From positions 240,808,001-240,872,000 of the forward strand of contig OZ024741.1 in assembly GCA_964016885.1 (NCBI GenBank): 64,000 nucleotides of DNA, read 5' to 3'. Origin of the DNA: Eledone cirrhosa (Eukaryota). The notes beneath the pieces were generated by a model. It ran no database searches. It saw only the letters and a program-made list of their open reading frames with translations, and was not told the origin of the DNA. Positions 630 to 55,199 of the stretch are shown here, in pieces; within the stretch, counting starts at the first letter, position 1, and every line of letters starts with the position of its first letter. The translations under genes and the position numbers were made by a program.

Positions 630-1712
630 ACAAGAAAGACTGTTTAATTTGTCCATCCCTATTTATTTTGTTATACATATTTCGTATAGAATAATATTGT
701 TTATGAATGTGAAGTAAAAATGAGTAGTAAGTCTTATAGACATATTGGTGCAACTTCTACTAGATTTAAGGAAAGGTTGTACACTCATTTAAAAGAGCTG
801 ATAAAAGATCTAACATAGCCCTGCCAGAACTAGTTTGGTCGCTAAAAAATAAACAAGTAGAATACTCCCTTTCTTGGTCAAAACTTTCACATGCTTTTCC
901 ATACATAAATGGATCTATATCTAGGGGGTCTGACCTCTGTACTACAGAGACTCTGGGCATCATAAATAGTAGACATAACATTCTTAATAAATACTCTGAA
1001 ATTTTTAATTCTTGTTTACACAAGATTAATAAGACATTTCATAGAGTATATAGTTAAAACTTAAATAATGGTAAATAGACCATCAAATAAGTAATTCAAC
1101 ATTCATTAATATTTAGATACATTATAACTTCAACATCAAAGTACAAATATCTAAAATTAGAATTAGTATCTAAGTGAATAGTATCTAATACGAAAAACAA
1201 AAAAAAATAGACTACAGTTCATACATGCCTCACTAGGAATTAAGCACCCAGTCTGATAACTTGATACCCTAGCCAGTTCACAAGCAGCAACGCCAATTGG
1301 AATATCTATCTCCCACATATAAAAACTACTACTTAAACATTTTCGGACTTATGCTTGCTGATCGGTGAAGGGAATAACACATATGACTAATAACATATCA
1401 ATGGATATTTACATCTCATGTGAACTTTTGTCTGAAGAGAACATGTAGGGCAACTGTTATACAACTACCATATGTCTTCGAAATACATAAATCAAAATAA
1501 ATAGGGATGGACAAATGGAACTGTCTTTCTTGTTTATTATTATAATAAAACTCCGGATGAACAAAAATCGTGGAGTGCTTGACATCTGTTAAGAAATTTG
1601 GCAGATTTTCAATCAACTTTCTTCCATTTTCAATCAACTTTCTTCCACTTTCAATCAACTTTCAATCAACTTCCTTCATTTTCAATCAACTTTCTCCCAC
1701 TTTCTTCCACTG
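630..1712 (+). mobile_element. Decayed Penelope-like element 3' part: GIY-YIG endonuclease remnant, degenerate hammerhead, tail ending in (TA)n
   Basis: Manual translation gives NNIVYECEVKMSSKSYRHIGATSTRFKERLYTH (~690-790) and WSKLSHAFPY...DLCTTETLGII...ILNKYSEIFNSCLHK (~875-1025), colinear with the PLE ORF at 13553-14413; CTGAAGA(1432)...GAAA(1480); GAGTGCT at 1573. Confidence 0.75.
1426..1498 (+). ncRNA. Degenerate hammerhead ribozyme motif
   Basis: ttttgt-CTGAAGA-stem II (gaacatgtagg/ccatatgtcttc)-GAAA-tacata-aa-tcaaaa; cleavage triplet appears mutated. Confidence 0.5.
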
Positions 1713-1829
1713 TATATATATATATATATATATATATATATATATATATATATATATATATATATATATATATATGTGTGTGTGTTGGTAGAAATCCACA
1801 GTGCTCAATTTGTTGGAAGAGAGCTTATT

Positions 1830-2087
1830 TAGTATAAACAAAGTTTCATACACTTAACATGTATGTGCTACCATTGGATTTTGGGTCCAATCATGACTAC
1901 CACTGTATATGGGGGAGGCACATTTAAACTGACCCATCATTTGGGCACATGGACTAAAATCTGGACCTTCATTCAGGCACATGGACAAACATATTTTTGT
2001 CCATGTGCCCGAATGAAGGGGCAGTTTATGACCCGAAAACCAATGGTAGCACATACATGGTAAGTGTATGAAACTTTGTTTATACTA
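1830..2087. mobile_element. MITE with ~48-bp terminal inverted repeats
   Basis: TAGTATAAACAAAGTTTCATACACTTAACATGTATGTGCTACCATTGG at left, reverse complement at right; second copy at 3440-3630. Confidence 0.8.
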
Positions 2088-2095
2088 TATATATA

Positions 2096-2436
2096 TCATC
2101 ATCATCATCATCATTTCGTTTAACGTCCGCTTTTTCCCTACTTGCAAGGGTGGGATGGGAACTGATTCTGGCTTGATTTCTACAGCTGGATGCCCTTCCT
2201 AACACCAACCTTATTTACAGTGAGTGCTGGGTGCTTTTTTTGCCGTGGCACCTCCACGACCACTTTGCAGTGGAATGATATGGACCCCAGTCCCTATCAT
2301 CTCATTTCTACAGCTGAGTAAACTGGAGCAATGTGAAATAAAGTGTCTTGCTCAAGGAAACAACACATCACCCGGTCTGAGAATTGAACTCACAACCTTT
2401 CGATTGCAAGGCCAATGCTCTAACCACTAAGCCATG
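2096..2436 (-). mobile_element. tRNA-headed SINE family A with RTE-type 3' tail and (TGA)n end
   Basis: Minus strand reads A-box TGGCTTAGTGG, B-box GAGTTCAATTC, tail CCCACCCTTGCAAG..GGGAAAAAGCGGACGT then (TGA)n. Confidence 0.85.
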
Positions 2437-3266
2437 AGATATGCAGAAAAGGAACTGGCATAAATTCTATAAAATGCACACAATGCAGATCCTGGGTACA
2501 CAAGAGATGTAGCGGGATAGCAGGCAAACTAGCAGGTAGGGAGAAATATGTATGCAGTAGATGTACAGGGAAATTAGACAGTAGAAGTCGCATTGATAGA
2601 CACATTTTTCAAATGCAGCCAGGTGCTATAGAAGTGGTGGATAGATTCCGGTACCTAGGAGATTGGATTAGCATGGGATGGGGGGGGGGGGGTTCCGAGG
2701 CCATAGTATTTAGAATAAGGACGGGTTGGAAGAAGTTTAGGGAGCTGCTTCCTCTGCTGACGAAGAAGGATTTCTCCCTGCGTACGAAAGGCCAGTTATA
2801 TGATGCCTGTGTGAGGAGCGCGATGCTGCATGGTAGTGAGACATGGGCAGAAACTGCAGTGGATATGCGACGGCTGGGGAGAAATGAGGCAAGCATGCTC
2901 CGTTGGATGTGCAGTGTCAATGTGCGTGAACGACCCAGCATGAATGTGTTGAGAGAGAAACTGCGTCTGAGAGGGATAGAATGTAGTGTGCGAGAGAGAA
3001 GACTGAGGTGGTATGGACATGTGATACGCATGGAGGATGACCGATGGGTGAAGAAGTGCCAGGAAATGCCAGTTGAAGGAAGACGTGGTAGAGGTAGACC
3101 ACGAAAAACATGGGTGGAGGTGGTGAGAACAGACGTCAGATCGCTGAAGCTCACGGTGGAGATGACGAAGGACCGTGACAAGTGGAGAGATGCTGTGCTG
3201 AATAAGACCCATCCCACCCTTGCAAGCAGGGAAGAGTTGACGTAAAATGATGATGATGATGATGAT
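2437..3266 (+). mobile_element. RTE-clade LINE 3' fragment (ORF C-terminus, 3' UTR, (TGA)n)
   Basis: ORF 2613-3245: VDRFRYLG, RIRTGWKKF, MLHGSETW, RRLRWYGHV, GRRGRGRPRKTW; Cys/His finger remnant just upstream. Confidence 0.9.
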
Positions 3267-3286
3267 TATATATATATATATATATA

Positions 3287-52726: not shown

Positions 52727-52967
52727 TATATAAACACACATATGCTCACAGATAAATATGATCATATAAACACGCAACCATGTTCACACGAACACATATA
52801 CACACAAATGCATAGACATAAACACACGCACAAATACATATAAACACGCATATTTGCTCACAAATAAATATATACATATAAACGCACACAGATGCTCACA
52901 TGAACACATACACACACACACACACACACTCACTCATGCTCACACAAAGACATATACAAACCAAATA

Positions 52968-53390
52968 TTAATAATTGTTTCTACTTTTGGCACAAGGCCA
53001 GCAATTAACCCAGTGCATTACTGGTGCTTTATTTTATTGACCTCCGTAAGGATGAAAGGCAAAGTTAACCTCGGCAGTGCTTGAAGCTAGAACGTAAAGG
53101 GCCATAACTCTATGCTGCAAAGCATGATGTCTGACGCTCTACCGATACTACCAAACCATGACGTTGTTATGATATTATTATTCACTCAGAAGGGCGGTGG
53201 ATTGGCATTATTGGTAGAGGGTCGGACGCCATGCTTTGACGCATAGAGTTACGGCCCTTGCCATTCTGAGTTCAAATCCCGCTGAGGTTAATTTTGCCTT
53301 TCATCCTTATGGGGTTGATAAAATAAAGTACCAGTAATACACACTGGGTAATTGCTGGCCTTGTGCCAAAAGTAGAAACAATTATTATTC
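52968..53390. mobile_element. Two SINE family B copies head-to-head (52968-53156 minus, 53192-53390 plus)
   Basis: Family consensus in opposite orientations, ~35-nt gap. Confidence 0.82.
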
Positions 53391-54243
53391 ACTCACAAAT
53401 ACATTTAGTTATCCACCATGTTAAGATCGAAAACAAAGTTTATATATATATATATATATATATATATATATATGTATATATATATATATATATATATATA
53501 TATATATATATATATATATATATATATATATATATATATATATATATACACACATTCACACACATACAGACACATACAGACACATACAGACACAGACAGA
53601 GACATTACTTCTTAAGGATTCTATCTGACTTAAAAAATTATTTACCATTTCAACAGAAGTTATGCCAGAATTTTCTTAATTCTCTGGATTTGGTTTGTCA
53701 AATGAAAACACATAACATTGACTATATCTAGGACGTTGGAACAACAACAACTACAACAACTGCTGCTACTACTACTACTACTACTACTACTACCTCAGCT
53801 ACCTGCATCACCACAACCACCACTGCCACTATTACTACTACCACCATCACTACCACCTTCACAACCACCACTAGCACAACTACTACTACCAACACTACTA
53901 CTACTACTACTACTACTACCATCACTACCGCCACCACCACCACCACCACCGCCACCACCACCACCACCACCACCACCACTACTACTACTATACTGAAATT
54001 CAGAAATTCTTCTTGGAAATATATTTCTTAAAACAAACTTTAATCTGCTAGTTTTTTCTTTTGGTATTTTAAAGTTATTTTTGCTAAATAATTCACCAAC
54101 AAAATCAATTATTTCCCCCATCCTAATTACATCCTAATTAACCCTTTCTTTGCATTTATATTTATGTGATTAACTACTACGTGGTAGAATTTGCTTTTTT
54201 CTTTTATATGTGTGTGTGTGTGTGTGTGTAAATATATATATAT

Positions 54244-54618
54244 ATACATGTGAATATAGAATTTTATATATATAAAGTTTAATATAGAAATGACTTCAAC
54301 AAGACTAGAACTGTTTCATTCAAAAGAAATCATCAGACTTTCCAAATGATTTCTATTGAATGAAACAGTTCTAGTTCTGTAGCAGGTGTTTCTATATTAA
54401 ACTTGATGTTTACTTTCTACTAATGCATTGAGTATCTTACTAATTAATATATATATATATATATATATATATATATATATATATATATATGTAACTGTTT
54501 TATTCAATAGAAATCATTTGGAATCTGATGATTTCTTTTGAATGAAACAGTTCTAGTCTTGTTGAAGTCATTTCTATATTAAACTTTATATATATAAACA
54601 TCTATATTCACATGTATA
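54244..54618. repeat. Compound fold-back (three related arms) around (TA)n
   Basis: 54244-54370 inverted versus 54493-54618; internal inversion 54274-54330/54345-54404; GAGTATCT tail-like motif at 54430. Confidence 0.7.
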
Positions 54619-54669
54619 TATATATATATATTTACACACACGCACACACATATATATATATATATATAT

Positions 54670-55199
54670 ATTAAAATACAAATATTAATAAAATAGATGT
54701 TTTTTTTATCAATAAAATTTTATTATACATATTTCGGAGGTACAACAGTATGTCCTCATCAGAAAAATATAATGATACATGACATACCCTGAGTTGTTAA
54801 ATGGTTAAGATTTAATCATATTTATTTATTAATATGTATAATTGTTTCTACTTTTGGCACAAGGCCAGCAATTATCCCAGAGTATTACTGGTATTTTATT
54901 TTATCGACCCCGTAGGGATGAAAGGCAAAGTTAACCTCGACGGGATTTGAACTCAGACCATAAAGGGCCGTAACTCTTTGCTGCAAAGCATGGCGTCTGA
55001 CCCTCTACCGATACTGCTAATACACCACCCTTAATATTAATATGTATAATAAAATTTAATTGATCAAAAGAACATCTATTTTATTAATATTTGTATTTTA
55101 ATATTAATAATTCTGGAAAATTATTTTTTGTAGAGTGCTTCCAATCTACTGTAAAATTCATTCTTTGATGTACTCATTGAATCTTGTTTAACTCTTTAA
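54670..55199 (+). mobile_element. Fold-back hammerhead cassette with GAGTGCT tail, interrupted by a SINE B
   Basis: 54670-54732 inverted versus 55040-55102; GAGTGCT at 55133; SINE B 54841-55031 (-) flanked by the duplication TATTAATATGTATAAT. Confidence 0.78.
54716..54770 (-). ncRNA. Type-I hammerhead ribozyme motif
   Basis: Minus strand: atattttt-CTGATGA-ggacatac[tgtt]gtacctcc-GAAA-tatgta-TA-ataaaatt. Confidence 0.75.

Follow-up and report, generated by a model that had tools for sequence, protein, structure and literature searches.

What are the hammerhead ribozyme motifs that crowd a 64,000-nucleotide stretch of the Eledone cirrhosa genome, and how did the fold-back cassettes that carry them acquire their ends in (TA)n repeats? 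The stretch, hereafter the window, covers positions 240,808,001 to 240,872,000 (forward strand) of contig OZ024741.1 in GenBank assembly GCA_964016885.1, and coordinates below are those of the window. A preliminary description had interpreted the cassettes as several non-coding mini-elements mobilised in trans by Penelope enzymes. Judged from their sequence, they are almost certainly the 3' ends of several Hydra-clade Penelope-like elements (PLEs), 5'-truncated and fused head to head within (TA)n. PLEs are the closest retroelement relatives of telomerase. For a wider picture we see about even chances: Hydra-clade elements, from cnidarians and sea cucumbers to cephalopods, would have in common a so far undescribed RNA platform (hairpin-P / hairpin-P') of two-fold pseudo-symmetry, onto which a dimer of reverse transcriptase (RT) is loaded so that each of its subunits begins one cDNA on one strand of a cut (TA)n. 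Such a platform would explain the Penelope 'tail' and the inverted ends, with hammerhead-cut circular RNA as the template for full-length copies and 150,000-250,000 hammerheads left in the genome. The formation of the tail and inverted ends, as well as the function of the hammerhead in PLEs, are declared open questions (PMC8557442, PMC11167929). Below, F1-F6, F8 and F14 denote element families, L-numbers denote loci from the same genome, and H1 and H2 are the first and second hairpins.

All 14 hammerhead motifs named in the preliminary description were located in the window. A relaxed type-I descriptor, drawn up after the motifs had already been seen, gave 17 matches against a mean of 0.5 (maximum 4) in 100 block-wise dinucleotide shuffles; these 17 comprised the 14 named motifs plus those with cores at 32322 (-), 54336 (-) and 54525 (+). 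With a stricter type-I descriptor, nine matches were obtained in the window versus 0.025-0.04 in shuffled sequence (maximum 1; three sets of 200 shuffles). At the sequence level, the window hammerheads are genuine type-I motifs, with the core, helices I to III and an NUH cleavage site. The CTGANGA core given for them holds generally, except for the motif at 15168 (+), which reads CCGAAGA, the usual core of family F1 (window 15173; L010, L014, L018, L019, L023, L024, L027 and L028). The helix I pairings cited earlier were correct, and three motifs (11491 -, 15168 + and 6936 +) have just two or three contiguous helix I pairs. Stems that differ between families stay paired, as had been claimed: 197 of 236 motifs from the same genome, a set selected for palindromic helix III and taken from loci enriched for the window's families, have all five helix I pairs. 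The fold-back layout and the (TA)n setting were likewise borne out. The label 'minimal', which in the sense of Cervera 2014 means the absence of helix III, does not apply: of the 14 named motifs, 13 have a self-complementary helix III of 8 nt, and membership among min-HHRs, which have no helix III or loop 3, was rejected since most motifs possess that helix. One named motif, at 19166-19215 (+, core 19174; listed earlier as 19170 +), has two helix I pairs, no copy among the fetched loci and no (TA)n end nearby; judged from its sequence, it is unsupported and may be a chance match or far decayed. Cores at 2757 (+) and 17622 (-) sit inside RTE-like coding sequence and were set aside as chance matches. 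In Rfam searches of the window, the sole hammerhead among the matches listed (150 of 378) was 32269-32340 (HH9, 33.1 bits against a cutoff of 52), the output consisting mostly of microsatellite matches to miRNA models; at curated cutoffs, no family was recognised for the hammerheads or the twin hairpin in 12 loci.

The link of these hammerheads to PLEs and to (TA)n targets, made in the preliminary description, was correct. Their portrayal as separate non-coding mini-elements fares worse, given that the sizes of inverted elements form a continuum of roughly 100 to 4000 bp (103-4022 bp), that one cassette encloses a remnant of a GIY-YIG open reading frame (ORF), and that families F1, F2, F3 and F5 could each be tied to their own Hydra-type ORF with RT and GIY-YIG domains. 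The cassette in question is a 5'-truncated F1 element at 11446-15390 (+). Its inverted arm (11446-13295, core 11533 -) finishes at the short end, and its direct arm (13282-15390, core 15173 +, H1 at about 15264-15299) has a long tail. The hammerhead pair flanks a broken ORF remnant at 13289-14422 (+), which consists of the end of the RT, a degenerate CxCX5C linker and, last, the GIY-YIG endonuclease. For F3, locus L184 holds a whole unit, made of an inverted ORF piece, a pseudo-long terminal repeat (pLTR) with hammerhead, the tail, a 5' untranslated region (UTR), the ORF, a 3' UTR, a second pLTR and (TA)n. The F3 cassette at 26632-27077 consists of two pieces of the L184 end (97-99% identity) joined head to head at 26880, namely a long arm (-, 26632-26880, core 26825, H1 26699-26719) and a short arm (+, 26880-27077, core 26971). 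Comparable arm junctions were found at 16041/16042 in the cassette 15811-16202 and at 13282-13295 in the F1 element. Five of 30 F2 loci had a GIY-YIG ORF upstream on the same strand (1.05-1.2 kb away), as did 9 of 24 F5 loci (1.1-1.6 kb away), and 5' junctions were observed for F1, F2 and F5. A single F3 match and two F4 ORF matches in this survey were set aside as they may be neighbours.

The ORF features place these elements in the Hydra clade. Motifs read from the sequence point to a single ORF with an RT and, at the C terminus, a GIY-YIG endonuclease, and long copies of the F1 ORF contain the RT motifs, RW[RK], DKT and the CxCX5C linker without CCHH, a set that is diagnostic for this clade (PMC8557442). 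Near the N terminus, RWK was found in L024 and RWR in L021, L023, L025 and L184; the published Hydra-1_Crog DNA also reads RWR by eye. The DKG motif is replaced by DKT (DKTNN in F1, F2 and F3), and the linker is present in these same three families, with CNLC and CQH (CxxC and CxH around a conserved E and N) in L027. In an alignment inspected by eye, CCHH is absent from the endonuclease, with one cysteine, not two, between GIY and YIG. The hammerhead within the pLTR and insertion into (TA)n are further Hydra traits. Homologues of the ORF carry PF00078 (P0057, P0102) or the GIY-YIG name (P0098), while Pfam and PDB sequence searches with the ORFs themselves gave no direct match. Homologues in Argonauta hians (P0004, P0060) are annotated as hypothetical protein or 'GATA zinc finger domain-containing protein 14-like'. 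A Naiad PLE was ruled out by domain order, Naiad having an N-terminal endonuclease, DKA and no canonical hammerhead. A non-LTR retrozyme was also rejected, since the window has no head-to-tail array of 170-400 nt hammerhead units, its cassettes are inverted, and F1, F2, F3 and F5 have ORF-bearing copies.

How, then, were the ends made? Among 280 (TA)n-terminated ends from eight families, 140 lie at a short site, S, and 127 at a long site, L, located 76-167 nt beyond S (13 elsewhere). The interval between them, the tail, is the start of the 5' UTR. Moreover, 63 of 68 adjacent inverted arm pairs combine one S with one L end, where independence would allow at most 50%; four pairs were S+S and one L+L. 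Pairs were identified by adjacency and de-duplicated by sequence, using 1.5-kb flanks only, so that long elements are under-counted. In the six families mapped, S and L each lie within about 10 nt of a small hairpin, the ends falling a few bases before it, and the end sites are AT-rich, often with TAT. In three contig runs from a single sample, from which the assembly may derive, summed depth steps down near S and L and TA-rich loose ends occur at S, a signal that reflects neither copy number nor independent support. The two fixed end sites and the twin hairpins beside them had both been missed in the preliminary description. We found no account of per-insertion S+L pairing in the literature searched.

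Full-length copies have a hairpin RCTC...GAGY (GCTC or ACTC...GAGC or GAGT) beside each end site, and the segments that follow the two hairpins, P after the first and P' after the second, are complementary to each other. The sequences of P and P' are family-specific, a pattern first spotted by eye in F1-F3. With fixed windows, the cognate partner was the best in seven of eight families (second in F1), and of all 40320 possible permutations the true assignment ranked first (exact p=1/40320). The P:P' helix varies in sequence and includes G-U pairs and bulges. H2 stands at a narrow distance from the first ATG in all 13 loci measured, the twin hairpins lying 19-46 nt before the start codon. As an outside test, 77 metagenome loci encoding related proteins were used, of which 46 were retained (match reaching the N terminus, minus three with less than 75 nt upstream). 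A fixed rule detected twin hairpins in 23 of these 46, against a shuffled mean of 0.56 and one in ORF interiors. Cognate P:P' pairing in 21 distinct metagenome loci was matched or beaten by none of 200000 permutations. In a hand-curated set of 20 loci (two false pairs dropped, one corrected, one added), the cognate energy was -10.2 versus -5.5 kcal/mol, and four control window pairs gave p values of 0.13-0.39. The metagenome consensus is GCTC...GAGCACT twice, ahead of the start codon. Of 39 hairpin types in the E. cirrhosa genome, 28 have A-U and 9 have G-C as the first pair. By eye, the motif is also visible in published Hydra consensi of sea cucumber, coral and copepod: both hairpins and the P:P' match in Hydra-1_Ajap, the first hairpin in the tails of Hydra-2_Ajap and Hydra-2_Amil, and variants in Hydra-1_Crog. 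At the level of sequence and pairing pattern, there is good support for the conserved twin-hairpin platform. We found no description of the twin hairpin or of the P:P' helix in the search listings and the papers cited here, a coverage that left out most subscription papers, Repbase Reports and the supplement of PMC11167929.

By analogy with the Poseidon element PAc, a role for the twin hairpins in starting reverse transcription is likely. The purified Poseidon protein nicks and extends both strands, has two internal RNA starts whose interval is the tail, and is a predicted dimer (PMC11167929). We think that the best overall explanation of our observations, which is probably right, is an enzyme that nicks both (TA)n strands and starts two reverse transcripts, one just before each hairpin; it is equally probable that the platform sets the two ends. 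The element's enzyme would nick both strands of the palindromic (TA)n target, and the motif would act as RNA, its P:P' helix holding the two hairpins in a pseudo-two-fold arrangement that a protein dimer could read. Each hairpin would position one RT start, each primed by one target strand, and S and L would be the start sites. The two cDNAs would stop early and then join head to head. Two RT starts, early stops and head-to-head joining would together account for the S+L pairing, for arms that consist of tail only (25447-25530) and for the variable sizes. The short clade-wide RNA motif by both end sites, with its family-specific compensatory pairing, turns the open questions about PLE ends into direct mutational tests, and it may offer a defined RNA handle for a small RT-endonuclease targeting (TA)n.

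Other explanations of the same ends are less probable. They might be produced after copying, if, in a DNA intermediate, the GIY-YIG domain recognised the inverted repeat GCTC...GAGC and cut next to it. The motif is indeed an inverted repeat at the DNA level too, Craig et al. ascribed the tail to endonuclease resolution (PMC8557442), and the Drosophila virilis endonuclease required tail sequence for recognition (cited in PMC11167929). However, the variable P:P' helix with its G-U pairs and bulges fits RNA, and Poseidon ends coincide with RT starts mapped in vitro (PMC11167929), so we regard such a cut as unlikely. Somewhat less likely still is that the twin hairpins serve translation or RNA packaging while the ends are fixed by annealing of the (TA)n primer to AT-rich patches. 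The narrow spacing between H2 and the first ATG agrees with the former and the AT-rich, TAT-containing end sites with the latter, but ends fall within about 10 nt of the hairpins in all six families mapped although the tails are 76-167 nt long and AT-rich throughout, and annealing by itself leaves the 63 of 68 S+L pairs unexplained.

The earlier view of independent ribozyme mini-elements, retrozyme- or MITE-like (miniature inverted-repeat transposable element) fold-back units replicating with Penelope enzymes in trans, now seems very improbable, and for F1, F2, F3 and F5 it is largely refuted. It has in its favour that most copies are without ORF, that many S+L elements measure 300-520 bp, that F4, F6 and F8 have no proven ORF and that another part of the genome (L096) contains a retrozyme-like tandem array. 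Yet the 300-520 bp mode stems in part from the bias that short queries and 1.5-kb flanks introduce, sizes and junctions vary copy by copy (as do the gaps between inverted cores), and the arms are colinear with ORF-bearing copies. The cassettes also have no H2, and their read-through RNA is predicted to fold in a way that buries the core.

Several points weigh against the preferred explanation, in which paired RT starts are set by the platform. Poseidon PAc belongs to another clade, starts in an AC-rich stem-loop at a site lacking homology with the target, and can insert without its hammerhead (PMC11167929). Five of the 68 pairs are S+S or L+L. F4, F6 and F8 have end features in common with the other families, but no colinear ORF tie was found for them; walking from F4 towards an ORF gave one GIY-YIG match in six loci (L196), a candidate link only. 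Within single families, P:P' shuffles gave weak results for F4 (p 0.24) and for F14 (p 0.06), and the hairpins are sometimes missing from minimum-energy folds. Half of the 46 metagenome loci fail the twin-hairpin rule, some because of short upstream sequence; of the 32 that have 200 nt or more, 17 pass. The hairpin stems in that set are near invariant and so provide no covariation, and the 39 hairpin types of the E. cirrhosa genome are related to one another, so they do not count as independent events.

What remains is the role of the hammerhead. Copies that end in (TA)n break off ahead of the second hairpin. In a pLTR-ORF-pLTR copy such as L184 the platform would therefore be confined to the 5' end, in the 5' UTR, and copying of the ORF would need circular RNA, tandem RNA or a template jump. 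The circle or tandem would probably arise when the two pLTR hammerheads cleave as a dimer through their palindromic helix III and the products are ligated, a route proposed in PMC4209133. Whether circular or tandem RNA is required for full-length offspring we rate at slightly below even; such a requirement would give the hammerhead a testable job. By calculation, helix III is favoured when two copies pair (-2 to -10 kcal/mol) and disfavoured within a single one (+4.7). Within a cassette, one hammerhead is on each strand, which should preclude dimerisation in cis, and in all three cassettes folded as read-through RNA the predicted unpaired-core probability was 0.0. Given the antisense partner and the fully buried core, the hammerheads of short cassettes are, according to these models, likely inert passengers.

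To place the window in its genome of 3.0 Gb, we sampled forty 10-kb stretches (400 kb) at chosen round coordinates. They gave 48 hammerhead matches against 3.4 in shuffles, 11 of which belong to one 310-bp tandem array. The remaining 37 correspond to about 84 per Mb or about 250,000 genome-wide (bootstrap 147,000-364,000; an estimate from 400 kb), and the 20 matches with Hydra-type ends to about 150,000 (75,000-240,000). Hydra ORF sequence made up 14.2 of the 400 kb. The density emphasised in the preliminary description stands in that the window is about three-fold richer than the sampled stretches (17 versus 5.9 expected). For comparison, 126,247 hammerhead motifs were reported in axolotl with another descriptor (PMC7229834), a number that the E. 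cirrhosa genome would by our estimate exceed at the upper figure of 150,000-250,000. A giant squid paper listed 235 hammerhead matches (PMC6962438), and the main text available for a 2026 Octopus vulgaris repeat annotation is without the words hammerhead, ribozyme and Hydra (PMC13282606).

Further Hydra-type features are distributed along the window. A decayed insertion at 617-1713 (+) has an inverted arm (617-684), a weak GIY-YIG remnant (693-961, tblastn E 3e-5), a decayed hammerhead core (1432) and H1 (1550-1578). The F4 cassette at 6650-7141 (cores 6767 - and 6941 +) has the long end of its + arm at 7141, with a candidate ORF link only. A lone hammerhead at 8183-8248 (-, core 8240) shows 72-74% similarity to Hydra-type ends elsewhere, with no tail seen, and is followed by an F3-like cassette at 9182-9545 (truncated short-end arm on the - strand from 9182, core 9349 +, H1 9456-9477, long end 9545). 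The F2 cassette at 15811-16202 has a long arm (-, core 16001, H1 15870-15896) and a short arm (+, core 16096), and a 5'-truncated F5 copy lies at 16445-17093 (+, core 16990, short end 17093). A second F3 cassette at 25260-25530 combines a short arm (-, core 25364) with a tail-only second arm (+, 25447-25530, long end), and it faces across (TA)n the tail-only long arm of another F3 insertion (25545-25615, -). A decayed cassette at 25931-26176, read from the sequence, retains a hammerhead remnant and H1 (26090-26116). Near the end of the window are two decayed F8 copies (54280-54600, cores 54336 - and 54525 +), H1 being present in the tail of other F8 copies, and an F6 cassette at 54668-55199, whose short arm (-, core 54762) and long arm (+, 55039-55199) are separated by a repeat resembling a short interspersed element (SINE) inserted at 54838-55042. 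H1 hairpins of Hydra tails without an intact hammerhead nearby were seen at 41018-41128 and 63063-63104.

Two window motifs, 32269-32340 (-, core 32322, type I) and the hammerhead-like 24755-24810 (-, core 24801), belong to repeated families without H1 or other Hydra end features. Hammerhead families with helix III ctag and without the Hydra hairpin (L024, L079, L087, L089, L096 and window 32269-32340) may represent other Penelope clades. A common family whose helix III has 4 nt, frequently arranged as inverted pairs with 60-95 nt between them (L081, L082, L085, L049, L054), accounts for 7 of the 48 sample matches, and no H1 was found in it. The retrozyme-like array at L096 (G000:C3:190000001-190010000, about 1-3400) consists of 310-bp head-to-tail units with a type-I hammerhead and without the Hydra hairpin, 11 copies up to an assembly gap, with a (TA)n end.

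The window also contains fold-back repeats without a hammerhead core (1826-2091, 3433-3637, 18453-18590, 27104-27444, 52969-53387 and 57859-58293), which could be truncated Naiad-like elements or MITEs. Fragments of a long interspersed element with RT and PHD-like domains, which we take to be RTE, are located at 2424-3245, 4305-5681, 17133-17945, 27927-28363 and 56142-56943. The SINE-like repeat of about 190 bp occurs at 495-617, 12558-12660, 20657-20863, 54838-55042 and 59047-59245, and interrupts two Hydra cassettes. Other features are a single-exon, protocadherin-like ORF of 825 aa with six cadherin repeats (44119-46596, -), a U4 small nuclear RNA match over the Rfam cutoff (62-199, +; 50.2 versus 46 bits), a U6 fragment under it (47829-47874, -), and a 134-aa frame at 48819-49226 (-) that has no Pfam match and presumably resembles a Helitron helicase region.

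Compared with known systems, these elements are new members of the known Hydra clade, and hammerheads in fold-back cassettes are ordinary by themselves. The architecture and its occurrence in cephalopods, with which the preliminary description was unfamiliar, have precedents: opposite-strand hammerhead pairs from truncated elements are in print (PMC4209133), and Hydra elements that carry hammerheads and target (TA)n were already published, as were inverted truncated copies and a one-ended tail; among these elements is one from Octopus bimaculoides, with a hammerhead, in the supplement (PMC8557442). The clade of Craig et al. (2021), including Hydra-1_Obim, shares with ours the C-terminal GIY-YIG, RW[KR], DKT, CxCX5C, 3' pLTR hammerhead, (TA)n, 5' truncation, inverted upstream copy and one-ended tail (PMC8557442). 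Ours differ in comprising at least eight families at very high copy number, in an F3 unit of 4.06 kb where published ones are generally under 3 kb, in tails of 76-167 nt rather than 30-40, and in a palindromic helix III of 8 nt. Both the twin hairpins and the P:P' helix can be seen in the consensi of that paper, and no mention of them was found in its available text. Poseidon PAc of Anolis (Frangieh et al. 2024, PMC11167929) likewise has two internal starts that bracket the tail, nicks and extends both strands, has AT-rich targets and carries a hammerhead upstream of the starts; it differs in clade and in starts inside the ORF in an AC-rich stem-loop, and neither twin-hairpin symmetry nor per-event S+L pairing was found in the text available. 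Metazoan PLE hammerheads (Cervera and de la Pena 2014, PMC4209133) are similarly type-I motifs in pLTRs, mostly in truncated copies, with dual motifs that lie on opposite strands at 100-700 bp from each other, a palindromic helix III and a proposed dimer and circle. In contrast to those, the motifs described here are not helix-III-less min-HHRs, and we estimate about 250,000 against 2,000-9,000 per genome there, with a different descriptor. Finally, non-LTR retrozymes (PMC7229834; preprint 10.64898/2026.07.22.740005) also combine type-I hammerheads, high copy number and a link to PLE pLTRs, but they are head-to-tail repeats of 170-400 nt without ORF, whereas the E. cirrhosa cassettes are joined head-to-head, vary in length and align colinearly with coding elements.

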